DNA of 64,000 bases from an uncultured Eubacteriales bacterium. Lineage in GTDB: Bacteria > Bacillota > Clostridia > Oscillospirales > CAG-272. Of this stretch, positions 1,229-61,718 are shown one piece after another. The notes beneath the pieces are model-generated. The model did no database searches. It saw only the letters and a list, made by a program, of their open reading frames with translations, and was not told the DNA's origin. The stretch is from assembly GCA_934467415.1 (NCBI GenBank), contig CAKSLQ010000003.1:77957-141956 (forward strand), written 5' to 3'. Numbering within the stretch: position 1 is the stretch's first letter; each line of letters opens with the position of its first letter. A program made the position numbers and the translations under genes.

Positions 1229-3382
1229 ATGGAAACGAACAAGCGGGGCTGGATCAAGAATCTCATCATCATCTTTCTCGTGCTGATCCTGATTTTCACC
1301 CTTTTCTCAAACACGTTCATGAACCGCTCGCTGCCCGAGGTCGCCGTCTCCAATTCCGAGAGCGGCACGATCACCACGCAGGTGAAGCTGACCGGTACGG
1401 TCAATGCAAACTCGGTCAAGTCGGTCACGCTCGAGTACGCGCGCAAGATCAATGAAGTGTTCGTGCGCCGCGGTGACACGGTCACGCCGGGCACAGTGCT
1501 TGCCACGCTGGTGGCGGGCGAGAGCACCGAGATCGACAACCTCGAGATCGCGCTCAAGCAGCTCCAGATCGAATACAAGAAGATGCTGGTGGAGACCGAG
1601 GACTCGATCACCACGCTGCGCTATCAGCTGGAGGACGCCGAAAAGGAGCTCGCCGAGCTGAACGACTTTCTCGCCGCGTATCCGACGGCCGACGCGCAGA
1701 AGCAGGCCTACGCCGATCAGATCAAGGTGATGGAAACCCAGATCAAGGCGTATGAGGACAAGATCGAGGCGCGGAACGAGGAGATCGATGCAAAGAAGGA
1801 CGACCTCGACGCCAAGCAGGAGGTCATCGACGACCTGCAAAAGCAGATCAACAAGCTGCATGACGCCGGCATGACGCTGGAGAAGCTCGGCAAGGCCATC
1901 AAGGACGCCGAGCAGGACGTCAAGGACGCCGAAAAGGCGACCAGACGCGCAAAGACCGCGCTGACCTCGGCGGAGAGCGCTGCCAATACCGCATCGCTCC
2001 TGAGCGCAGACGCACTCAAGAAGCTGAACGAGGCCAACGCCGCACTGGAAAAGGCCGAAAAGACGCTGAGCGACCTGAACGCAAAGAAGAATTCGCTGGT
2101 GTCCGAGCGCGAGGCGCTGGATGCCCGCATTGCGGAGCTGGAGGCCAAGACCGACCGCACCGAGGCGGAGGAGGCCGAGCTCGCCGAGAAGAAGACCCGT
2201 CTTGCCGCCGTGCGCAGCGAGATCAGCGACACGAACGCCGCGATCGGGACGGCCGAGACTGCCGTGGCAGACGCCGAGAGCGTACAGACGGCAGCGGCCG
2301 CGGACAGTGAAAAGTATACCGGCCAGCTGCAAACGGCCAACAGCGCCCGCTCTGCGGCGGACGCCGAATACAAGAGCCGCCAGGCTGAGGAAAAGAGCGC
2401 GAAGACTACGCTGGACAACCTGAACGAGGGCTGGTCGCGCGCCCTGCTGGAGGACCGCCTTGCGGAGCGCCAGAGTGAATACGACGCGGTGGCCAAGGAA
2501 CAGAAGCTGCTCAACAAGGACGTCGAAAAGATGACCAAGGAGAAGGAGAAGCTGACCAAGGAGAAGACCGAGCTGGAAACCGACAGCACGACCTTCGAGG
2601 AGAAGACCAAGAAGCAGGTCGAGCTGACCCGCTCGGTGGCGGACTGCAAGACGAAGCTCCGCATTGCCGAGGCGAACGGCGCGATCGACGGCGAGACCGA
2701 GGCGCTCAACCTCTCGATTCAGCGCACGAAAATTGCGCAGAAGCAGCGCGAGATCGAAAAGATGCGCGAGAAGGCGGTCTCCACCGAGATCAAGTCTACG
2801 GTCAGCGGCACGATCAGCACGCTGAACATGACGGCGGGCGATGAGATCGCCGCAGGCACGACGGTGGCCGAGATTGCCACCTCGGACGGCTACACGATGG
2901 AGTGCAGCGTGCCGAACGCCCAGGCATCCCGCCTGCGCGTGGGGCTTGTCGGCGAAGTGCAGTACTATTACTGGGGCGATAAGCCGACCGTCACGATTCA
3001 GACCATCAAGAATGACCCGAACAACTCGGGCAAGAACAAGATTGTCACCCTCACGGTGGACGGCGACGTCGCCGACGGCACGTCGCTCACCGTCACCATC
3101 GGCTCGCAGGGCTCGAGCTACGACTGCATCGTGCCGAACAGCGCAATCCAGGAGGACTCGGACGGCAAGTTCATCCTCGTCGTCACCTCCAAGTCCTCGC
3201 CGCTCGGCAACCGCTACTATGCACAGCGCAAGAACGTCACCGTGCTTGCCTCCGAGGCAACGCGCAGCGCGATTGACGCCTCGCTCTCCTGGGGCGACTA
3301 TGTGATCACGGGCGCGACCGATGCGGACGGCAAGAAGATCCCGATCTCCGACGGTATGCAGGTCCGCATGGCGGAGAAATAA
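1229..3382 (+). CDS. HlyD-family membrane-fusion (periplasmic adaptor-like) protein with a very long coiled-coil insert
   Basis: ATG 1229 preceded by AGGAG. N-terminal TM (WIKNLIIIFLVLILIFTLF). Split lipoyl-like halves (VKSVTLEYARKINEVFVRRGDTVTPGTVLATL ... STVSGTISTLNMTAGDEIAAGTTVAEI) flank roughly 400 aa of E/K/A/L-rich heptad sequence. C-terminal beta-barrel-like region. Confidence 0.75.
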   Translation: METNKRGWIKNLIIIFLVLILIFTLFSNTFMNRSLPEVAVSNSESGTITTQVKLTGTVNANSVKSVTLEYARKINEVFVRRGDTVTPGTVLATLVAGESTEIDNLEIALKQLQIEYKKMLVETEDSITTLRYQLEDAEKELAELNDFLAAYPTADAQKQAYADQIKVMETQIKAYEDKIEARNEEIDAKKDDLDAKQEVIDDLQKQINKLHDAGMTLEKLGKAIKDAEQDVKDAEKATRRAKTALTSAESAANTASLLSADALKKLNEANAALEKAEKTLSDLNAKKNSLVSEREALDARIAELEAKTDRTEAEEAELAEKKTRLAAVRSEISDTNAAIGTAETAVADAESVQTAAAADSEKYTGQLQTANSARSAADAEYKSRQAEEKSAKTTLDNLNEGWSRALLEDRLAERQSEYDAVAKEQKLLNKDVEKMTKEKEKLTKEKTELETDSTTFEEKTKKQVELTRSVADCKTKLRIAEANGAIDGETEALNLSIQRTKIAQKQREIEKMREKAVSTEIKSTVSGTISTLNMTAGDEIAAGTTVAEIATSDGYTMECSVPNAQASRLRVGLVGEVQYYYWGDKPTVTIQTIKNDPNNSGKNKIVTLTVDGDVADGTSLTVTIGSQGSSYDCIVPNSAIQEDSDGKFILVVTSKSSPLGNRYYAQRKNVTVLASEATRSAIDASLSWGDYVITGATDADGKKIPISDGMQVRMAEK

Positions 3383-4467: not shown

Positions 4468-6870
4468 ATGAAGAGATTTACGAGAATCCTTGCAGGCGCA
4501 TGCGCGCTGCTGCTGGCGACCGGTTCGCTTACCGGCTGCTTCGGCAGCAAAAAGAAGCTGCCCGATAAGCAGACCGTTGACCATGTCTACAAGTACGAGC
4601 AGCGGGAGCTGTACAAGGTCGCACGCCCGGACGATGACAAGGACGTCACCGAGCGCGAGGACATCTACAACACGCTTTCCGATGTCAACGGCTATATGTT
4701 CCTCGTCTGCCGGTCGGATAAGGACTACAACGAGCTCGGCTACACGCTGCACTACGGCAAGTTTGACGGCGAGGACAAGTCGATAGAGCTGCCCGTGGCC
4801 GAGGATGCGGACAGCTATATCTCCTACGGCAGTTTTGCGCGCTTTGAGGATGGCTTTGCCCTGGTCGAGCAGCGCAACATCCTCATCGACAAGGAAAACT
4901 ATGTGTACGACCAGCAGTCCAATTTGCAGATCTACGACGAGAACGGCGTCTTGCAGTCGACCGTCGATCTGCGGAAGGCGTTCGGCATTCCGGACGACGG
5001 CTACATCAACGTCGAACGGGTGCTGCGGCATGACGATACGCTGTACCTGAGCTGTTACGGCGAAAGCGGAATGACCCTGCAGACGATGAGCCTCGACGGC
5101 ACGCTCGGCAAGACCGTCCCGGTCTTCCCGGACGGCACGGACGGCTACATGAACAACATGTTCTTCACGGCGGACGGCAAGATGATCGTCTGCGCGGACA
5201 TTTACGGCACGGACAGCTCAAAGCAGCTGATTATCACGCTCGACCTTGCCACCGGCGCGCGCACCGAGCTGGATACGAAAAACGACTACCGGCTGGGCAA
5301 TTCGCTGTTTGCGGGCCCCGACGGCACCTTCTACTGCTCGGATCAGAACGGTATCTACACCGTTGACCCGACGACGCTTGCAAAGACCGAGATCCTCAAC
5401 TACATCAACTCGGACTACATCTATAAATACAGCAATTTTACGATGCTGCCCGACGGCAGGATCGCCACCTTCAGAGGCAACTACAACCCGGGCGCCATGG
5501 CCTCGACCTACGCCGTCACCATCTTTACCAAGGTGCCGGACAGTGAGATTACGCCGAAGTACATCATCACGGTGGCGTCGGCGGGCTATGCCTACAATCT
5601 GCAGGAGCAGATCGTCAAGTACAACCTGGCCTCCGAGGAATACCGCATCAAGTATGTGGACTATTCGCAGTACAACACCGATGAGGACTACACGCTGGGG
5701 CAGACCCGCCTCGGCGACGACATCCTTGCGGGCAATGTGCCGGATGTGCTGATCGCCGACCAGCAGTTCTCGGTCTCGAAATACGTCAGCAAGGGGCTGT
5801 TTGCCGACCTCTACACCTTCATCGATAAGGATGAGAGCATGAAGCGCGAGGAATTCCTCGAAAATATCCTTGCCGGCTGTGAGATCGACGGCAAGCTCTA
5901 TGAGATCCCGACCAACTTCTATATTCAGGGGCTGATCGGTCCGAAGGAGACGATCGACACCTTCCGGGACCTCACCATCCGGGAGTTTGTTGACAAGCTC
6001 TCCACCCTGCCCGAGGGCGTGACCTTCTTCCGCGACGGCGACATCACCCGCGAGACCCTGCTGCAGATGCTGTTCCTCACCAACTATCAGAACTTCATCG
6101 ACCGCAAGACCGGCAAGTGCAGCATCAACAACGACGAGTGCCGCGCGCTGCTCGAATTTGCCAAGATGATGCCCGAAAAGAGTCTTTGGGACAGAGAAGG
6201 CTTCGATTCCTCCACGTTTGACTGGGACGCGTACAATAACATGTTCCGCGACGGCAAGGCGCTGGCGCAGGGGGTCTCCATCGGCGACTTCTCCGGCATC
6301 CGGGATTATGCCTACAGCTACGGGAAGGATACGGAGCTTGACTTCATCGGCTTCCCCGCGCCCGACCGTGCCGGCATGAGCTTCACCACGGCAAACCTCA
6401 AGTTCCTCGTCAGCGCAAAGGGCGCGTTCCCGGATGCGTCATGGGAATTCGTCAAGATTTTCCTTGCGGATGATTACCAGACCAACCAGTCCTGGGGCTT
6501 CCCGGTCAAGAAGGCCGCGCTCGACGCAAAGAAGCAGGCGATGCTCGACCAGATCAAGGAGAATGAGAAAAACCGGGACGAAGACGGCGACACGACGGGC
6601 GACGGCAACATCATCGGCGTGGCACGGGCGACGATGATCGACGATGTTTACTATGACGATGTTTACTATCGCCGCGAGGTGACCGCCGCGGATGTCGAGA
6701 CGGTCTACGGCTATGCCTGCACCGCCAAAAAGCAGTTTGTCTATGACACCAGCCTGTTCGACATCATCAACGAGGAGGCTTCCGCCTACTTCGCGGGGAC
6801 GAAAACACTCGACGAGATTCTCCCGCTGATGGAGAGCCGCATCACCATCTTCCTCTCCGAGGGAAGATAA
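4468..6870 (+). CDS. large lipoprotein: beta-propeller-like N-terminal half plus extracellular solute-binding (SBP family 1-like) C-terminal half
   Basis: Signal peptide with lipobox LTGC. C-terminal half has SBP-like sequence (PKYIITVASAGYAYNLQEQ..GNVPDVLIAD..GKLYEIPTNFY). Lies downstream of the ABC permeases. Confidence 0.7.
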   Translation: MKRFTRILAGACALLLATGSLTGCFGSKKKLPDKQTVDHVYKYEQRELYKVARPDDDKDVTEREDIYNTLSDVNGYMFLVCRSDKDYNELGYTLHYGKFDGEDKSIELPVAEDADSYISYGSFARFEDGFALVEQRNILIDKENYVYDQQSNLQIYDENGVLQSTVDLRKAFGIPDDGYINVERVLRHDDTLYLSCYGESGMTLQTMSLDGTLGKTVPVFPDGTDGYMNNMFFTADGKMIVCADIYGTDSSKQLIITLDLATGARTELDTKNDYRLGNSLFAGPDGTFYCSDQNGIYTVDPTTLAKTEILNYINSDYIYKYSNFTMLPDGRIATFRGNYNPGAMASTYAVTIFTKVPDSEITPKYIITVASAGYAYNLQEQIVKYNLASEEYRIKYVDYSQYNTDEDYTLGQTRLGDDILAGNVPDVLIADQQFSVSKYVSKGLFADLYTFIDKDESMKREEFLENILAGCEIDGKLYEIPTNFYIQGLIGPKETIDTFRDLTIREFVDKLSTLPEGVTFFRDGDITRETLLQMLFLTNYQNFIDRKTGKCSINNDECRALLEFAKMMPEKSLWDREGFDSSTFDWDAYNNMFRDGKALAQGVSIGDFSGIRDYAYSYGKDTELDFIGFPAPDRAGMSFTTANLKFLVSAKGAFPDASWEFVKIFLADDYQTNQSWGFPVKKAALDAKKQAMLDQIKENEKNRDEDGDTTGDGNIIGVARATMIDDVYYDDVYYRREVTAADVETVYGYACTAKKQFVYDTSLFDIINEEASAYFAGTKTLDEILPLMESRITIFLSEGR

Positions 6871-6883
6871 AAGGAAATACAGT

Positions 6884-6990
6884 AAAAAATACGGCTGCGC
6901 CGGATTTTTCACACCGATAAGGGCGCGAGCGGTGCGCGAGACGCGAGTGAACGCCCTTGCCCCACTTCAAACGCTCGCCGTTTGAAGTGA
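6884..6990 (+). repeat. intergenic repeat HP-III (terminator-like hairpin + AAGGGCG..CGCCCTT hairpin + variable hairpin), copy 1
   Basis: AAAAAATACGGCTGCGCCGGATTTTT, then AAGGGCG..ACGCGAGTGAACGCCCTTGC, then an 11-bp hairpin 6963-6989. Second copy at 21935-22040. Confidence 0.75.
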
Positions 6991-6996
6991 CTGTTT

Positions 6997-7026
6997 GTAC
7001 GATGCCGCAACGCGGCATCGTACTTT
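6997..7026 (+). terminator. strong hairpin with a short T-tract (probable terminator)
   Basis: Perfect 12-bp stem GTACGATGCCGC / GCGGCATCGTAC with a 3-nt loop, followed by TTTGGTTT. Confidence 0.5.
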
Positions 7027-7083
7027 GGTTTCGGGGGTACTTTAAGATTTTATTAAATTCAAAACATATAAAGGAGAACACAC

Positions 7084-9534
7084 ATGAACAGACGTATACG
7101 GATGCTTGCAGGCGCGCTCGCGGCGGTGCTTGCCGCCGGCAGCCTTGCCGCCTGCGGCGAAAAGAAGCGGAAGCTGCCCGAAAAGCAGGTGCTTGACCAT
7201 GTCTACAAGTATGAGACGAAGACGCTTGCCACTTACGACGAGGTGAAGTGGGACGATGATGCCCAGAGAGATTTCAAGGGCTATACGGAGGTGCAGGACA
7301 CGGTGATCTCACCGGCGGGCTATGCCTACCGCACCGTCACCGTGGACAAGGATTACAACACCACGGCGCAGTCCGTCTCCTTCGGCCGATTTGACGGCAG
7401 CGATCCGGTGACGGTGGACAGCGTCCTGCCGACCGGCAACGGCGACTCGGTCTACTTTTCCGTCACGGCGGTCGTGCCGGAGGGGCTCGCCGCTGTCATG
7501 GACGAAAACCGCGTGGTCGGCGAGCAGAAGGTTGACGGCGAAACGGTTCCGATCTACGAGCGAAAAACCTATCTGCGCATCTTCGGCTTTGACGGCGAAA
7601 AGCTGTCCGAGACCGAGATCACCCCGGCGCTGTTCGGGCTGGCCGACCCGGGCGCAAACGGCTATTTCGGCGTGGGAAACCTCATCACCGACGGCAAGGA
7701 TCTGTACATGACCCTGCGCAGCGACAACACCGAGGCGACGGGCAAGCTCTTTCATCTCGGCGCGGACGGCAGCCCGAAGGAGCCGATCACTCTCGCGGAC
7801 GGCGGGGACTATTACTTCCAGTCGCTCTATTTCTTCGGCGAGGGCAAGCTGTTTGCGTCCTACTATGACCAGAGCGGCGGCGGCTCGGCGGCGTTTATCC
7901 TGGATATCGCGACCGGCAAGAAGACCAAGGTGGAAAGAGACAGCTTCCCCGGCGGCTATGCGGTGCTCTACAACTCCTTCGGCGGTCCGGACGGCATGTA
8001 TCTGTTTGACAGCACCGTCGGCGTGTACAAGCTGGATACCGACGCGATGACGCAGGAGATGGTCTGCAACTTCCTCAATTCGGATTTCATCTTCTCTTCG
8101 GGCAGCATGTCCTATTCCAATCTGCCGCTCGCGTCGCTCGGCGACGGCAGGTTTGCGGCACTGCGCAGCTCGACGAAAAAGGGAAAGACCTCGACACAGC
8201 TCAGCGTGCTGGAGCCTGCCGACCCCGCCGCGCTTCAGCCGAAGTACATCATCACGGTGGCGTCCGCGGGCTATGCGTACAATTTTGAGGAGCAGGTGGT
8301 CAATTTCAATCTCTCCTCGGACGAGTATCGTATCAAGTATGTCAATTACGGCACCTATAATACGACGGAGGATTACACGCTCGGCGTAAAGCAGCTCAAG
8401 GCGGACATCCTGGCCGGCAACGTGCCGGACATCCTGATCGCGGACGAGAGCTTCTCGGCGGCGGATTACATGAACAAGGGCGTCTTCGCCGATCTCTACA
8501 CCTATATCGACAAGGACGAGACCCTGACGCGGGACAAATTCCTGCCCAACATCCTTTCGGCGAGCGAGCTGAACGGTAAGCTCTATGAGCTGCCCACTTC
8601 CGTCTACATCTTCGGCATGATGGGCGAGAAGTCACGGGTCGCCGAATTCGGCGGGCTGACGATGCGTGAGTTTGCCGACAAGGTCGCGGCGCTCCCCGAC
8701 GGCGTGAAGTTCGTGCGCGATGGCGACAACACGCGCGACCAGATGCTGCGGATGCTGTTCTTCATCAACTATGCGGACTTTATCAACCGTGCCGACGCGA
8801 CCTGCGATTTCGACAACGACGATTTCCGTGCGCTGCTCGAATTTGTGAAGACCGTGCCCGAAAAGTTCATGCAGGACGACCCGAATTTCAATTCGGATAC
8901 CTTCGACTGGGACGCGTACAACAACATGTACAAGGAAGGCAAGGCGATCGCCCAGATCTCGGGTCTGACCGATTTCTTCGGCTTCGAGAACATGTCATAC
9001 ACCTTCGGCACGCTGGAGACCGACCTTGTCGGGCTGCCGTCGCGGGACAGAAACGGCTACGCCTTCAGCGCAACCCAGCTCAAATTCCTGCTCAGCGCCA
9101 AGAGCCCGTTTGCGGAGGAGGGCTGGAAGTTTATCCGGCAGTTCTTCACGGACGATGTGCAGACCTCGCTCGAATACGGCTTCCCGGTCACCGTGTCCGC
9201 GCTGAACGCGGCAAAGCAGGCGGCGCTCGACAAGATTGAGAAGCGCGCTGCCGAGCAGAAGGAAGGAACCGGCAAGGTCAACGGCTACATGGTCGGCGAC
9301 AACGGCGTGACCATCCCGATCTACGATCAGGGCACGCGGTATGAGACCGCCGCGGATGTGGAGCACATCTACGACATTGTGATGTCCGCAAAAAAGCCGC
9401 TCGGCTATGATGAAAGCATCTACAATGTCATCATGGAGGAGGCATCGGCGTATTTCTCCGGCGAGAAGAGCGTGGAGGAGGTCACCAAGCTGATTAACAA
9501 CCGGGTGGGGATCATCCTGACCGAAAACCGGTGA
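7084..9534 (+). CDS. large lipoprotein, paralogue of 4468-6870 (propeller-like N-half + SBP-like C-half)
   Basis: AAGGAG SD. Lipobox LAAC. Colinear with the upstream paralogue (KLPEKQVLDHVYKYE; PKYIITVASAGYAYNFEEQ; GNVPDILIAD; GKLYELPTSVY). Confidence 0.7.
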   Translation: MNRRIRMLAGALAAVLAAGSLAACGEKKRKLPEKQVLDHVYKYETKTLATYDEVKWDDDAQRDFKGYTEVQDTVISPAGYAYRTVTVDKDYNTTAQSVSFGRFDGSDPVTVDSVLPTGNGDSVYFSVTAVVPEGLAAVMDENRVVGEQKVDGETVPIYERKTYLRIFGFDGEKLSETEITPALFGLADPGANGYFGVGNLITDGKDLYMTLRSDNTEATGKLFHLGADGSPKEPITLADGGDYYFQSLYFFGEGKLFASYYDQSGGGSAAFILDIATGKKTKVERDSFPGGYAVLYNSFGGPDGMYLFDSTVGVYKLDTDAMTQEMVCNFLNSDFIFSSGSMSYSNLPLASLGDGRFAALRSSTKKGKTSTQLSVLEPADPAALQPKYIITVASAGYAYNFEEQVVNFNLSSDEYRIKYVNYGTYNTTEDYTLGVKQLKADILAGNVPDILIADESFSAADYMNKGVFADLYTYIDKDETLTRDKFLPNILSASELNGKLYELPTSVYIFGMMGEKSRVAEFGGLTMREFADKVAALPDGVKFVRDGDNTRDQMLRMLFFINYADFINRADATCDFDNDDFRALLEFVKTVPEKFMQDDPNFNSDTFDWDAYNNMYKEGKAIAQISGLTDFFGFENMSYTFGTLETDLVGLPSRDRNGYAFSATQLKFLLSAKSPFAEEGWKFIRQFFTDDVQTSLEYGFPVTVSALNAAKQAALDKIEKRAAEQKEGTGKVNGYMVGDNGVTIPIYDQGTRYETAADVEHIYDIVMSAKKPLGYDESIYNVIMEEASAYFSGEKSVEEVTKLINNRVGIILTENR

Positions 9535-9640: not shown

Positions 9641-9730
9641 CCATATTGGAGTTGTTTTTCGCGGATTCTGCATCCGCCTGCGCCGGTCAAGGCGGCGGGG
9701 GTAGGCGATGTTTGCGCAAAAGGAAACAAA

Positions 9731-9778
9731 GCCTTCCCCAGTGGGGGAAGGTGTCGGCGGAGCCGACGGATGAGGTGT
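9731..9778 (-). repeat. solo HP-I arm (3'-arm type)
   Basis: GCCTTCCCC-AGTG-GGGGAAGG-T-GTCGGC-GGA-GCCGAC-GGATGAGGTGT. Nearly identical to the arm at 28513-28560. Confidence 0.8.
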
Positions 9779-9843: not shown

Positions 9844-9985
9844 CCGGTAGGGGTCGGCGCCCTCGACGACCCGCGCTCACCTTAGTGCAGGCGGGTGATT
9901 CGTGAATCGCCCCTACGGGATTGCAAAGGTTTTCGCGCACCGCACACCATTTTCACCGTAGGGCGGGGGCTTGCTCCCGCCGCAA
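9844..9985. repeat. mosaic of shared intergenic modules
   Basis: CCGGTAGGGGTCGGCGCCCTCGACGACCCGC (9844-9874) is the reverse complement of pieces at 55485-55499, 55587-55598 and 61565-61582. GTAGGGCGGGGGCTTGCTCCCGCCGCA (9958-9985) recurs at 55622-55648. Confidence 0.75.
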
Positions 9986-10007: not shown

Positions 10008-10118
10008 ACCTCCCTCGGTGAGGGAGGTGGCACGGCAACGCCGTGACGGAAGGAGTCTTGCTCTCTGCAAAACTCCCCCAGTCACCTATCGGTGACAGCC
10101 CCCTCAGCGAGGGGGCTG
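10008..10118 (-). repeat. HP-II five-hairpin element, copy 1 (inverted relative to the other two)
   Basis: Reverse complement aligns end to end with 50671-50778 and 61613-61718. Five consecutive stem-loops. Confidence 0.85.
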
Positions 10119-10215: not shown

Positions 10216-10962
10216 ATGCAGGGGCAGGACAACGACAAGCTGACGCCGACGGCCGAGCCGGGCGGGAAATTCTTTCGCCGGCTCGACAACTTCTGGTATC
10301 ACAACAAGTGGAAGACCATCATCGTGAGCTTTCTGCTTCTGACGCTCATCGTCTGCGCCGTGCAGTTTGCGGGGCGCGAGGACGCGGACATCTACATCCT
10401 CTATGCCGGGCCGTACAAGTTCGGGCAGACCGACACGCAGAGCCTTGAGAGCGCGTTTTCCGCCGTGGCGGGCGACCGCGACGGCAACGGAAAGGTGCGC
10501 GTGGAGCTGATCGACCTCTATCTGATGTCGGACGAGCAGATTGAGGGCGCGGTCTCGTCCGCGCAGGTCGGCGGAGAGGGCGCGGTGGTCGTCAACTACG
10601 AGATGTTCAGGAGCAACCGCACCGCGTTTGACCAGCAGATTCTCGCGGGCGACGTGGTGATCTGCCTGCTCGACCCGTGGCTGTATGCCGATGTGCGGGC
10701 GGCGGACGGCTTTCTGCCGCTGGCCGACGCGCTGGGCTACACGCCGGAGAACGCCGTGGACGAATACGCCGTCCGCATCGGCGACACGCCGCTCGGCAGC
10801 TATTTTTCGGTGCTGCGCGGGCTGGATCGCGACACGCTGCTCTGCGTGCGCCGCATGAGCAGCTTCTCCTTCCTCAAGGGGCAGACCCGCACCGAGAAAT
10901 ATTACAGCTACTGCCTCGACACCTTTAAGAAGATTTTTACCTTCGAAGCGCCGACGGAATAA
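10216..10962 (+). CDS. hypothetical membrane-anchored protein
   Basis: ATG 10216 (MQGQDNDK..). Single TM (TIIVSFLLLTLIVCAVQF) followed by an extracytoplasmic domain. No family recognised. Confidence 0.6.
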   Translation: MQGQDNDKLTPTAEPGGKFFRRLDNFWYHNKWKTIIVSFLLLTLIVCAVQFAGREDADIYILYAGPYKFGQTDTQSLESAFSAVAGDRDGNGKVRVELIDLYLMSDEQIEGAVSSAQVGGEGAVVVNYEMFRSNRTAFDQQILAGDVVICLLDPWLYADVRAADGFLPLADALGYTPENAVDEYAVRIGDTPLGSYFSVLRGLDRDTLLCVRRMSSFSFLKGQTRTEKYYSYCLDTFKKIFTFEAPTE

Positions 10963-11068
10963 GCCTCCCTTGTGTAAAGGGAGTGTGTCCCGAAACGCAA
11001 GCGTTCCTAATGAGTTTCCCTTGCGGGAAACATCATCGCCGACGGAGGGATTGTTTTGTATGGAACAA

Positions 11069-11116
11069 CCCCTCAGTCACCTGACGGTGACAGCTCCCCT
11101 TGCACAGGGGAGCCTG
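11069..11116 (-). repeat. half HP-II element (hairpins 1-2 plus CTGAGGGG)
   Basis: CCCCTCAG-TCACC-TGAC-GGTGA-CAGCTCCCC-TTGCAC-AGGGGAGC. Reverse complement matches the left half of HP-II and the GGCTCCCCTGTGCAAGGGG module. Confidence 0.7.
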
Positions 11117-21685: not shown

Positions 21686-21852
21686 AAGTATTCTGCGTAT
21701 CCTCCGTGTTGTCGGACGGTTACCCGTCGGTTTTGCCGGAAGATGCGGCGGCAGTCCGCCGTCGGAGCATCCGCCGAATGGGCAGGCGAGCCTGCCGCTC
21801 TCGATAACTCCGATCCTCGTTAACCGCGCGGTGCGCGGTCTGGCGCTAAAGG
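21686..21852 (-). ncRNA. glmS: glmS ribozyme (GlcN6P-activated)
   Basis: The minus strand reads ..UUU-AGCGCCAGACCGCG..GGUUAACGAGGAUCGGAGUUAUCGAGAGCGG..UUCGGCGGAUGCUCC.., matching the conserved glmS core and cleavage-site context. Lies directly 5' of glmS. Confidence 0.9.
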
Positions 21853-21934
21853 CGCGGCACATGTGCCGACGCCCTTTTCATGAGCGTATATTTTCTGCGG
21901 CTCCGCCGCGGAAAAACAAAATATGAAATCCCGT

Positions 21935-28383: not shown

Positions 28384-28512
28384 TGCCGCAAGCCGACTTG
28401 CTTGATAATCATAAAGCGGCGCCGTCTTGCGGCAAGTCTGTACAAAATCTGCTGTGCCGTGGACGCAGCCATTGACAAAGTGTATATGTGAAGTGTAATG
28501 CTTGCGCTTATA

Positions 28513-28985
28513 GCCTTCTCCAGTGGGAGAAGGTGGCGGCGCAGCCGTCGGATGAGGTGTTTACGACAGCTGCAAGCTGTCGTAATCCAAGCACAGCTTG
28601 TCCAGTATATCTGCGGTTACAGAACCGAAGTTTTTGCGGATACTATCATTGGAATAACGAAGCACAGTAATCCCCCACAGGGCAAGCTTCTCATCTCTTT
28701 GTGCATCAGTTTGTACATGTGCATCGGACAGATGCTGTTTTCCGTCTACTTCAATCGCTATTTTTTTCTCTGCAATATAAAAGTCCAGAATATAGTTTTC
28801 AATATTGTGTTGACGCCTCACATTGCAGGGAAGTTTTTTCAGAAAGTCATACCAAAGATGCTTTTCTTCCGGTGTCATATTTTTACGAAGCGTTCGCGCG
28901 TTTTGGACAAGCTTTTTATTATATGGCAGCATGGCTACTCCTCATCCACCGCTGACGCGGTCCCCCTTCTCCCGCAGGAGAAGGC
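28513..28985 (-). mobile_element. candidate selfish element: DUF559 endonuclease ORF bracketed by double-hairpin inverted arms (HP-I, full-length form)
   Basis: Arms at 28513-28560 and 28938-28985. Each reads GCCTTCTCC-N4-GGAGAAGG, then a second hairpin, then GGATGAGG, in inverted orientation. The interior is visibly AT-rich compared with the flanks. The same arms occur without an ORF elsewhere in the window. Confidence 0.55.
28561..28932 (-). CDS. DUF559 domain endonuclease (Vsr-like PD-(D/E)XK fold)
   Basis: ..NYILDFYIAEKKIAIEVDGKQH..RDEKLALWGITVLRYSN.. is the typical DUF559 core. SD GAGGAG lies 5 nt before the ATG. Confidence 0.8.
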   Translation of the reverse strand: MLPYNKKLVQNARTLRKNMTPEEKHLWYDFLKKLPCNVRRQHNIENYILDFYIAEKKIAIEVDGKQHLSDAHVQTDAQRDEKLALWGITVLRYSNDSIRKNFGSVTADILDKLCLDYDSLQLS

Positions 28986-29018
28986 TTTTTTAGTTGTTCG
29001 GCAAAGCTTGTTCGCCCC

Positions 29019-34550: not shown

Positions 34551-34652
34551 CCGTACAGCGGGATGCGGAATACGCACCGCAGGGCAAAGCCCTTTCGTCC
34601 GCTCCGCAACTCCCCGTCGGGGCGGCACTGTACGCGCGCATTCCTACTCTGT
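34551..34652 (-). promoter_or_regulatory. THF (tetrahydrofolate) riboswitch aptamer
   Basis: The minus strand reads ACAGAGUAGGAAUGCGCGCGU..GGGGAGUUGCGGAGCGGACGAAAG..CUGCGGUGCGUAUUCCGCAUCCCGCUGU. This matches the conserved AGAGUAG / GCGU / CGCGGUG / GCAUCCGCU elements of the THF-I class. Located 5' of folT. Confidence 0.8.
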
Positions 34653-34716
34653 AATTTAATCAGTTGAAAAATTCTGTTCTTCAACTGCCGACTCTATTAT
34701 AGTCGCTTTCTGCGGC

Positions 34717-44446: not shown

Positions 44447-44639
44447 AAGGCCGGGGAGAATGTCGGTCGTTTGGCGAGCGTTGGCACGGCACGATGCCGC
44501 GCTTCTTAGGCTTCCCCGGCGGGGAAGGCTTTAGCGGCGGGAGACAGATGTTGCCCTACAGATTTGAGCGTTTTCCGTACATTCCGACGCGCGCATTTCG
44601 CCCTCGGTTCTGAACCCGCACGGGTTCTTTTTTCTTTGC

Positions 44640-50592: not shown

Positions 50593-50670
50593 GTTGATGT
50601 GTTTTTCGGCTCCCCTGTGCAAGGGAGGCAAAGAGAGATTGCGCACGGTGCGAGAAATCGGTTCATCTTT

Positions 50671-50778
50671 CAGCCCCCTCGGTGAGGGGGCTGTCACCGA
50701 TAGGTGACTGGGGGAGTTTTGCAGAGAGCAAGACTCCTTCCGTCGCCGTTCGGCGACACCTCCCTCACCGAGGGAGGT
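50671..50778 (+). repeat. HP-II five-hairpin element, copy 2
   Basis: CAGCCCCCT..AGGGGGCTG, TCACC-GATA-GGTGA, GGAGTTTTGC..GCAAGACTCC, GTCGCC-GTTC-GGCGAC, CCTCCCT..AGGGAGG. Confidence 0.85.
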
Positions 50779-55365: not shown

Positions 55366-55781
55366 GGGAACGCGCAAACCGCACGGGGGCTTACTCCCGC
55401 CGTCCGAACCCAATCTGACTTTGGCTCCTCCTGACGGGGGAGCTGTCGCCGTAGGCGACTGAGGGAGAGATAACGCAAAGCAAGGCGGGTCGTCGAGGGA
55501 TGTTTTTCGGTTTCGCTTTGCGAAATCGTCGGTGTTCAGCCGACGAAGAAAAACTCCTTAGGAACACATCGTGTTCCGGGGGTCATGACCCCTACCGGAT
55601 TGTACAAAAGACGCACACACTGTAGGGCGGGGGCTTGCTCCCGCCGCACCTGCTCATACAAAACAATCATTCCCCGGTTGTTATTTTACTTTGCAAAAGA
55701 CACCTCATCCGTCGCCGTTCGGCGACACCTTCCCCCGCTGGGGAAGGCAAAGAACGCGGGTGACCGTACCGTTCTAACCAA
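55366..55781. repeat. dense mosaic of intergenic hairpin modules
   Basis: Contains a half HP-II (55423-55468), the ~60-nt shared module (55499-55557), GTAGGGCGGGGGCTTGCTCCCGCCGCA (55622-55648) and a solo HP-I 3' arm (55700-55748). Confidence 0.8.
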
Positions 55782-55944
55782 GCCTTCCCCCTTGGGGGAA
55801 GGTGGCGTGTAATACGCCGGATGAGGGGTAGCCATTCGTCAGAATGGCGTCTCACAGCACAGAACGAGACTGCGCAGACGGATGCTTACGCATCCTACCC
55901 CTCATCAGTCAACTCCGTTGACAGCTTCCCCCAAGGGGGAAGCC
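55782..55944. repeat. HP-I miniature (gene-less, symmetric arms)
   Basis: A and B hairpins, then GGATGAGGGGTA, then three small hairpins, then TACCCCTCATC followed by B' and A' hairpins. Confidence 0.85.
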
Positions 55945-56117
55945 AAAAGACGCTTTGCGTCTCGTACGGCTCTCCCCACCGGGGAAGCCTAAGGGCGAAG
56001 AGCGCTTTCTTCTCCGCTTCCCGCAAACAACCCGCCGGAAACGGCGTATTTTTTGTATTTACTTGCCGGGCGGCGGATGCTATGATTGAAATAGGAAAAA
56101 ACGCGGAGGAAACCGAC

Positions 56118-61380: not shown

Positions 61381-61420
61381 AGGTAATAAGGTAGGAAATG
61401 CAGGGCGGCGCGTTCTCCAA

Positions 61421-61559
61421 GCCTTCCCCTTGGGGGAAGGGGGACCGCACCCGCGGTGGATGAGGGATTGCAGGCAGCAGGCACAGCATTGTGTGATGCT
61501 TTGCTTGCATCAATCCCTCATCAGTCGCCTACGGCGACAGCTTCCCCAATGGGGAAGCC
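61421..61559 (+). repeat. HP-I miniature (gene-less, with 5'-arm and 3'-arm polarity like the DUF559 copy)
   Basis: Left arm ..GGGGAAGG-GGG-ACCGC-ACCC-GCGGT-GGATGAGGGATT. Right arm AATCCCTCATC-A-GTCGCC-TAC-GGCGAC-A-GCTTCCCC-AAT-GGGGAAGC. Confidence 0.85.
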
Positions 61560-61612
61560 TAAGAGGCGCCGACCCCTACCGGGTTTGTGGAGAATCTGCA
61601 CAATCTGTCTTT

Positions 61613-61718
61613 CAGCTCCCTCGGTGAGGGAGCTGTCGCCGAAGGCGACTGAGGGAGTTTTGCTCTGAGCGAAACTCCTTCCACCGCTGGCGCGGTCCCC
61701 CTCCCTCAATGAGGGAGG
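61613..61718 (+). repeat. HP-II five-hairpin element, copy 3
   Basis: Colinear with 50671-50778. Stems differ by paired substitutions. Confidence 0.85.

Follow-up and report, generated by a model that had tools for sequence, protein, structure and literature searches.

The window (the whole stretch of DNA that was analysed, 64,000 nucleotides) contains, at five intergenic sites, 16 arms that obey one grammar when read with an explicit hairpin parser, plus extra elements (Table 1). One element, the DUF559 unit, bears a gene; the others are gene-less and comprise HP-II copies, short HP-I elements, solo arms and solo hybrid hairpins.

Table 1. Palindromic elements of the window and the parts of their arms; positions are those of the window.
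Feature	Position	Strand	Description
HP-II copy 3	61613..61718	+	five-hairpin fold, -37.9 kcal/mol, z=-6.5
HP-II copy 3, left class-B arm	61613-61657		outer hairpin 61613-61635; inner hairpin GTCGCC-GAA-GGCGAC 61635-61649; box TGAGGGAG 61650-61657
HP-II copy 3, central stem	about 61652-61682
HP-II copy 3, right class-A-like arm	61675-61696		box complement CTCCTTCC 61675-61682; alpha inner hairpin ACCGC-TGGC-GCGGT 61683-61696
HP-II copy 3, right outer hairpin	61700-61718		CCTCCCTC-AAT-GAGGGAGG
Short gene-less HP-I element	61420..61560	+	fold z=-7.85
Element 61420..61560, class-A left arm	61422-61465		outer hairpin 61422-61440; alpha inner hairpin 61444-61457; box GGATGAGG 61458-61465
Element 61420..61560, class-B right arm			inner hairpin GTCGCC-TAC-GGCGAC; outer hairpin GCTTCCCC-AAT-GGGGAAGC 61540-61558
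Gene-bearing DUF559 unit	28512..28988	-	Pfam DUF559; PDB 3hrl; 451-bp absence in strains
DUF559 unit, 5' arm	28940-28984		outer hairpin 28965-28984; alpha inner hairpin 28948-28961; box 28940-28947
DUF559 ORF	28561-28932	-	123 aa
DUF559 unit, 3' arm	28514-28557		box 28550-28557; beta inner hairpin 28535-28549; outer hairpin 28514-28533
HP-II copy 2	50671..50778	+	right-arm inner hairpin GTCGCCGTTCGGCGAC at 50742-50757
HP-II copy 1	10008..10118	-	as copy 2 but for one loop base and the right-arm inner hairpin
Class A + class B element	10962..11113	+	left-arm inner region expanded to 57 nt
Short gene-less HP-I element	55781..55945	+	class A + class B
Solo class-A arm	55703..55747	-	box; inner hairpin GTCGCCGTTCGGCGAC 55711-55726; outer hairpin 55728-55747
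Solo class-A arm, 3'-arm type	9730..9775	+	loop AGTG; beta inner hairpin; box GGATGAGGTG
Class-B arm of a further, longer element	55423..55466	+	GGCTCCTCC-TGAC-GGGGGAGCT, GTCGCC-GTA-GGCGAC, TGAGGGAG
Solo hybrid hairpin	44507..44530	+	GGCTTCCCC-GGC-GGGGAAGGCTT; left half class B, right half class A
Solo hybrid hairpin	50609..50630	+	GGCTCCCC-TGTGCA-AGGGAGGC; upstream of HP-II copy 2

The window also holds repeats of another family, unrelated to the HP elements, with a REP-like GTAG head (CCGTAGGGCGGGGGCTTGCTCCCGCCGCA; 9955-9985 and 55620-55650) and hairpins containing CCCTACCGG; further sites of these GTAG/CCCTACCGG repeats are located at 9846-9870, 55585-55600 and 61569-61585, and both kinds often adjoin HP elements. 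Elsewhere, Rfam identifies a THF riboswitch (34554-34653, minus strand, 94 bits) and a glmS ribozyme (21689-21858, minus strand, 63.9 bits), while positions 4468-9534 are occupied by two adjoining large paralogous genes, 69-84% identical in blocks 2685 nt apart.

From the outside to the inside, an arm consists of an outer hairpin, one half of which is all-pyrimidine and the other all-purine, an inner hairpin, whose structure is conserved and whose sequence is free, and a purine box, in which the purine half of the outer stem is repeated in mirror order. An element consists of two such arms in inverted orientation around a central stem, with five hairpins in the order outer-inner-central-inner-outer; the three HP-II copies and HP-I have an identical five-hairpin fold, with z = -6.5 to -8. 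Class-A arms begin with the outer hairpin (A)GCCTTCYCC-loop-GGRGAAGG, the HP-II form being CCTCCCTC-loop-GAGGGAGG, continue with an alpha (GGG-ACC..GGT) or a beta (T-G.C....G.C) inner hairpin and end with GGATGAGG, or GGAAGGAG in HP-II, while class-B arms read GCTYCCC..GGGRAGC-T-GTC...GAC, followed by TGATGAGG, TGAGGGAG or TGGGGGAG. Since the alpha and beta inner hairpins are paired in different registers, the idea of one consensus structure covering both was abandoned. A class-A arm is paired with a class-B arm in all six complete gene-less elements of the window; both arms of the DUF559 unit are class A. The arms keep their structure as their sequence changes: both sides have changed in 7 of 8 outer-stem pairs, and 96% of the cells pair, in a set of arms preselected as perfect hairpins. 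The same grammar was found in more than 150 arms across 80 genomes. HP-I and HP-II, which the initial annotation had proposed to be related, indeed share both architecture and arm grammar, and represent two subfamilies of one large superfamily of modular palindromic intergenic repeats.

The relationship had been proposed from the right end of HP-II copy 3 (61681-61718), and the strings on which it was based are present as described. The reverse complement of 61681-61699 is GGGACCGCGCCAGCGGTGG, which differs at one of 19 positions from GGGACCGCGTCAGCGGTGG, the reverse complement of 28946-28964 in the 5' arm of the DUF559 unit; a third copy of the 19-mer, with two mismatches, is located at 61441-61459. 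The outer hairpin was said to have kept its position with a changed sequence, and the changes proved to be compensatory (CCTCCCTC/GAGGGAGG in HP-II versus CCTTCTCC/GGAGAAGG in the DUF559 arm). Likewise, the minimum-energy fold agrees with the proposal that GGAAGGAG, which in HP-II takes the place of GGATGAGG, pairs into the central hairpin. The hairpin GTCGCCGTTCGGCGAC, reported as common to HP-II copy 2 and the solo HP-I arm, is identical in the two; since the GTCGCC/GGCGAC stem is frequent in the family (5 of about 13 comparable arms), this identity rests mainly on the 4-nt loop.

Inner hairpins behave as swappable modules. When HP-II copies 1 and 2 are compared, the left side shows a single mismatch over 70 nt and the right side is identical over 29 nt; the two right inner hairpins, however, bear no relation to each other (GTCACGGCGTTGCCGTGCC in copy 1, GTCGCCGTTCGGCGAC in copy 2). 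Similarly, the orthologous element of two related lineages (L084 and L089) differs only in the inner module, which is of 15 nt in one and of 57 nt in the other. HP-II is lineage-specific, and a metagenome scan for its centre returned two contigs only.

The box resembles the outer stem as a mirror copy more than as a direct one: in the commonest arm mirror identity is 0.87 and direct identity 0.75, a gap that is only moderate because the blocks are G/A-rich. Over 18 outer-stem types the mean mirror identity is 0.747, compared with 0.651 with permuted boxes, and none of 5000 permutations reached 0.747; outer-stem type and box type are tightly linked. The allowed triplets were G*G:C, A*A:T and T*A:T, and at most one mismatch per motif was accepted. 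The commonest arm type (n = 104) has 8 of 8 allowed purine-motif triplets, as does GGAGAAGG with GGATGAGG, and 7 of 8 are found for GAGGGAGG with GGAAGGAG in HP-II and for GAGGGGGC with TGGGGGAG; arms of the CCTTCCCC type retain the GGATGAGG box, which gives one mismatched triplet. The arm grammar is that of a potential intrastrand purine-motif triplex of the BoxC/PIT/TM kind whose second loop is a hairpin.

BoxC/PIT/TM repeats have been known since the 1990s. They were described, as BoxC/PIT/TM_ECO repeats, by Bachellier in the 1990s, by Hoyne & Maher (2000, 2002) and by Holder et al. (2015; PMC4666352). E. coli has 23 TM loci; Salmonella is reported to be free of TM_ECO. TM repeats are intergenic, their inverted pairs are always formed by a type A and a type B, deletions leave a stem-loop, and their loci are more variable between strains than controls; no function or associated gene is known for BoxC/PIT/TM, neither flanking genes nor mobile elements were associated with them, and the triplex was undetected in vivo (Holder et al., PMC4666352). 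The arms of the window resemble them in the succession of pyrimidine stem, loop, purine stem, loop and mirror purine block on one strand, with one T of the third block opposite an A, in being strictly intergenic and multi-copy, in the inverted pairs of two different types (A+B) and in the hypervariability of the loci between strains, where deletion leaves a simple stem-loop. However, the 3-nt second loop of TM_ECO gives way in the window to an inner hairpin that measures 14-19 nt and at most about 60 nt, so that neither ITxF (limited to 1-6 nt) nor the search of Hoyne (0-10 nt) would cover these arms. The sequences also differ, being CCTTCTCC/GGAGAAGG/GGATGAGG and not of the CCCTCNCCC kind: the TM_ECO consensus CCCTCNCCC-N3-6-GGGNGAGGG-N3-GGGNGAGGG is absent from the window arms, which are of the CCTTCYCC or CCTCCCTC types. 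Moreover, the window arms enclose a central stem or a gene, and BoxC/PIT/TM repeats were reported without an associated gene, whereas here, and beside E. coli ycjD, a DUF559 gene adjoins. The HP repeats are BoxC/PIT-type repeats in a new variant that has been expanded by a hairpin, and their DUF559 member bears a gene.

The ORF of this member matches Pfam DUF559 (E=5e-27; 94.3 bits, with a gathering cut-off of 20.6) and its protein matches PDB 3hrl (E=7.5e-8). DUF559 falls in the PD-(D/E)XK clade together with Vsr and the homing endonuclease I-Bth0305I (PMC3424549), and the 123-aa product is a predicted Vsr-like PD-(D/E)XK nuclease. A single-sequence AlphaFold model of the protein was discarded because of its pLDDT of 50. 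The box of the 5' arm doubles as the ribosome-binding site (Shine-Dalgarno) of the gene, and its complement is contained in the 3' arm. Just upstream of the unit, positions 28395-28510 consist of tandem units of about 60 nt (..ACAAGTCTGTACAAAATCTGCTG..TTGACAAAGTGTATAT..) with promoter-like TTGACA/TGTAAT, whose copy number differs between strains (L092-L098, 4780-5000).

A scan of species-representative genomes yielded at least 498 DUF559 relatives, from which 80 loci were kept, nearly all of metagenome-assembled gut Clostridia. Most of them are arranged as an arm, GGATGAGGAG 5-7 nt before the ATG, the ORF, ACACCTCATCC and a second arm. With the box alone as anchor, it was found within 40 nt upstream of the ATG in 54 of the 80 loci, and 44 of these 54 have a perfect 8-bp outer hairpin, against about none in shuffles; overall, about two thirds of the loci retain arms and about a third are without recognisable arms on one side. 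The ORF is intact in 67 of the 80, with the residues D..E.DG.QH conserved in the intact ones, and has a GC content of 0.36 versus 0.49 for the flanks (0.41 versus 0.61 in the window). Across genomes, the gene-adjacent arms are better conserved than the DUF559 protein itself, the outer stem, the GGGACC..GGTGG module and the box being near-invariant at 60-78% protein identity. In one genome, two paralogues (L018 and L024) have 91% identity that stops at the limits of the element, the flanks being unrelated. The DUF559 gene and its arms form one unit. Phage and plasmid collections contain only distant DUF559 homologues (<43% identity), thus the Clostridial unit is not a known phage or plasmid cargo. 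At L018, L024 and L044 the ORF runs the other way with respect to the arm types: the AGTG loop and the GGATGAGGTG box are in the 5' arm, and TGTG and GGATGAGGAG in the 3' arm, which suggests an inversion between the arms or a swapping of the arms.

Strains were compared at the spacer from rplA to the Rce1-like gene, where the L1 protein is identical and the flanks are 97-99% identical. The DUF559 unit is present in the window and in four strains (L091-L094); in four others (L095-L098) exactly 451 bp are missing and one perfect outer hairpin is kept at the same place, while in L099 and L100 the hairpin is missing too. The remaining hairpin is AGCCTTCTCC-CGCA-GGAGAAGGCT in L095, L096 and L097, and has the loop AGTG in L098, CGCA and AGTG being the loops of the right and left terminal hairpins, respectively. 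Between alleles with and without the unit no target-site duplication was found, the hairpin itself excepted, and no transposase hallmark was seen. The terminal hairpins are at once direct and inverted repeats, so recombination between them and insertion into a hairpin both fit; deletion between the outer hairpins could also occur by ordinary slippage or recombination, with no dedicated enzyme.

Other sites show a comparable turnover. In the spacer that follows the AMP-binding gene, HP-II copy 2 is found in the window and in L101; in L102 its place is taken by a short HP-I element and a solo hairpin, and in L103 by no more than a solo hybrid hairpin, its left half class B and its right half class A. 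The same hybrid form, present in L102, L103 and the window (44507..44530), is the one that collapse of an A+B element would leave. At another locus, L102 carries a class B + class A element of the same subfamily as 55781..55945, as judged by eye on unaligned sequences. Both edges of the alaS-rpmH spacer are conserved, with a different element in each lineage; in L084, L086 and L088 it holds the same subfamily as the window element 10962..11113. In L012, a gene-less derivative whose boxes are only 15 nt apart adjoins a gene copy. Three metagenome contigs (L104, L105 and L106) end, at 3280-3350, inside HP-II copy 2 or the corresponding HP-I element.

The association of DUF559 with such repeats extends beyond Clostridia. 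In E. coli, the DUF559 gene ycjD (NC_000913 1351407-1351760, minus strand) is followed, 168 nt after its stop codon, by TM_ECO number 9 of Holder et al. (1351204-1351239), which conforms to the TM_ECO consensus, and its start is overlapped by a perfect 17-bp hairpin containing GAATGAGGTG (E. coli K-12; L109 and L110, 4041-4761 = NC_000913 1351040-1351760). A 226-nt stretch downstream of ycjD is a dispersed repeat, found at a median of 15 places per genome, and is complete in only 3320 of 5426 genomes. Eleven further loci were examined, from Deinococcus (2), Sphingomonas, Novosphingobium, Azospirillum, Sinorhizobium, Neisseria, Photobacterium, Picosynechococcus, Pseudanabaena and Synechocystis (collectively labelled L112/L114, L119, L121, L124, L117, L118, L120, L113/L115, L122, L111 and L123). 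Motifs are present beside the DUF559 gene in 12 of the 12 non-Clostridial loci, of which 8 score under a strict count, those of E. coli, Picosynechococcus, Synechocystis and Novosphingobium being recognised by looser patterns or by eye only. At the further loci, the motifs are pyrimidine/purine hairpins with mirror blocks, often as inverted arms abutting the ORF, and in Novosphingobium outer hairpin, inner hairpin and mirror box are found as in Clostridia. Strict pyrimidine/purine hairpins number 19 in 6 kb of flanks and 26 in 135 kb elsewhere, with a Poisson P of about 4e-17 that ignores the clustering of repeats. Six groups are thus represented, i.e., gut Clostridia, Deinococcus, cyanobacteria and alpha-, beta- and gamma-proteobacteria, and the repeat sequences beside DUF559 differ greatly between them. 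Some units are located between genes of an operon (paaD/paaZ, sufB/sufC) or next to hpaB. On two cyanobacterial plasmids the DUF559 gene lies beside DUF1156 genes (L111/L116, 19331-21855; L115, 19953-23765), and in Synechocystis B12 it apparently splits a DUF1156 gene. In the literature available without subscription, no link of DUF559 or YcjD to these repeats, to BoxC or to the arm sequences was found.

The system has partial parallels among known mobile elements. As in REP/BIME sequences with their RAYTs (REPtrons; Nunvar et al. 2010, PMC2817692), abundant extragenic palindromes are combined in mosaic, alternately oriented composites, and one gene per family stands between inverted copies of the genome's own repeats (PMC2817692); however, RAYT is a Y1/HUH transposase, whereas the gene here codes for a predicted Vsr-like PD-(D/E)XK nuclease (Pfam DUF559), and unlike REPs, which are imperfect palindromes of 20-40 bp with a GTAG head, the arms are devoid of such a head and each consists of two hairpins and a box. 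With MITEs and insertion sequences, Correia and BOX they share terminal inverted repeats, strong folding, gene-less derivatives beside gene-bearing copies and a modular build (cf. BOX A-B-C). Unlike a MITE or insertion sequence, the unit encodes no DDE, serine or tyrosine transposase, DUF559 being its sole ORF, no target-site duplication is seen, and the site that lacks the unit keeps one terminal hairpin.

The observations to be explained are that the architecture is shared, that inner hairpins are replaced, that the gene unit has been duplicated within genomes and is carried by some strains of a species but absent from others, where one hairpin is left at the site, and that elements turn over at fixed intergenic sites. 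We infer a nuclease-associated selfish repeat system: a single repeat superfamily with BoxC/PIT/TM-like arms and a DUF559 unit, spread by nicking of the arms and subsequent repair, a reading to which we assign a probability of roughly 0.6. The DUF559 nuclease would recognise the folded arms in DNA and nick them; repair from other copies, by gene conversion or by template switching at the hairpins, would then spread the unit, and the same repair would shuffle modules between subfamilies and collapse elements to solo hairpins. The initial annotation had overlooked that the box mirrors the outer stem, that the whole unit is polymorphic and gene-bearing, and that the grammar is the one of the known BoxC/PIT/TM repeats.

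The main rival holds that the repeats belong to the host and are spread by general errors of replication and recombination at palindromes, while DUF559 is a selfish homing-type gene that uses them as landing sites and plays no part in the gene-less copies. Vsr-like (EDxHD) nucleases do include bona fide homing endonucleases, such as I-Bth0305I (PMC2677866, PMC3239194), from the same PD-(D/E)XK clade as DUF559 (PMC3424549), and the unit is like their genes in being a small, low-GC selfish ORF with presence/absence polymorphism at a fixed site and a retained predicted catalytic core (the conserved residues of the 67 intact ORFs in the 80 loci). The low-GC ORF also sits within what looks like a pre-existing repeat architecture, the gene is never flanked by class-B arms or HP-II, HP-II is confined to its lineage, and the solo hairpins resemble empty sites. 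The DUF559 gene, unlike those of Vsr-like homing endonucleases, lies outside any intron or intein, and in place of a unique gene sequence it occupies a dispersed palindromic repeat. The better conservation of the gene-adjacent arms than of the protein speaks against simple landing sites, and the recurrence of the association in six bacterial groups with very different repeats is easier to explain if protein and repeat co-evolve. For these reasons homing into host repeats appears unlikely, although it is the strongest of the competing explanations.

The initial annotation had concluded that the families exchange or share modules, and for the inner hairpins, which do swap, this stands; the near-identity of the 19-mer, on the other hand, does not serve as evidence of exchange within this genome. 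It might be explained if HP-II copy 3 had recently taken its right inner hairpin from an HP-I or DUF559 arm of the same genome: module flanks are alike between the families (TCC-hairpin-CCC or ACCT) and provide short homology for conversion. Yet such a transfer is rather improbable, since the loop is GCCA in HP-II versus GTCA in the DUF559 arm of this genome and ACCC in the short HP-I arm, and the GCCA version is the commonest in the DUF559 arms of other genomes. The HP-II core recurs without change in 8 of 94 comparable alpha arms of other genomes and with at most one mismatch in 14, and 11.6% of random pairs of such arms are no more than one base apart. The 19-mer is therefore a conserved consensus and no proof of recent exchange, GGGACC..GGTGG being a conserved module of DUF559 arms across many genomes; its identity would denote membership of a shared, constrained module, probably a functional one, rather than the trace of a single recent transfer.

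A role at the RNA level, with the elements conserved as terminators, attenuators, mRNA stabilisers or small RNAs, seems still less probable. All the elements of the window are strictly intergenic, often directly after stop codons, and fold strongly; at the DUF559 site T6 follows the solo hairpin, which gives it the look of an intrinsic terminator, and the box acts as the Shine-Dalgarno of DUF559 with its complement in the 3' arm. Against this, Rfam searches with the elements, run at the gathering score and at E<=5, gave no family, not one HP hairpin within 49.5-62.5 kb scored as a terminator, and the orientation of the elements relative to neighbouring genes is mixed. In E. coli, PIT elements were found to act neither as promoters nor as terminators, and RNA does not form purine-motif triplexes (PMC4666352). 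The symmetry between box and stem is devoid of an RNA rationale, and the mirror, if it matters, would have its role at the DNA level. Finally, a chance likeness of short, GC-rich palindromes, although the stems are indeed of that kind, can practically be dismissed, as the similarity exceeds the shuffled-sequence control named in the initial annotation (dinucleotide shuffles of the window give 0.13 expected matches to the 19-mer even at up to 3 mismatches, and for the 16-mer GTCGCCGTTCGGCGAC 0.33 are expected at up to 2), a palindrome-aware null of 16 random hairpins (5-bp stems, 4-nt loops) yields a pair no more than one base apart with P=0.0086, and the grammar recurs across the 80 genomes.

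We know of no mechanism by which BoxC/PIT/TM repeats spread, nor of a role for DUF559, a very widespread domain. The apparent link between the two across phyla is the most interesting lead of this analysis, and the DUF559 nuclease may be the enzyme partner that these repeats have lacked. More generally, and with somewhat less than even confidence, we propose that small DUF559 proteins, including YcjD, are dedicated nucleases of BoxC/PIT/TM-type repeats across bacteria, in a role like that of RAYTs for REPs. The dispersed gene-less repeats would then be targets of these proteins or derivatives that lack autonomy, the action of the nuclease at the folded motif would produce the strain-level instability, and HP-I and HP-II would represent the form taken by these repeats in Clostridia, with the second loop enlarged to a hairpin that can be swapped. 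The repeated association makes the function of both the repeats and DUF559 testable by simple experiments. The repeats may also break short-read assemblies, as three of the retrieved contigs end inside them. If true, nuclease action at the arms would account for the fast strain-to-strain turnover of intergenic regions in these gut Clostridia.
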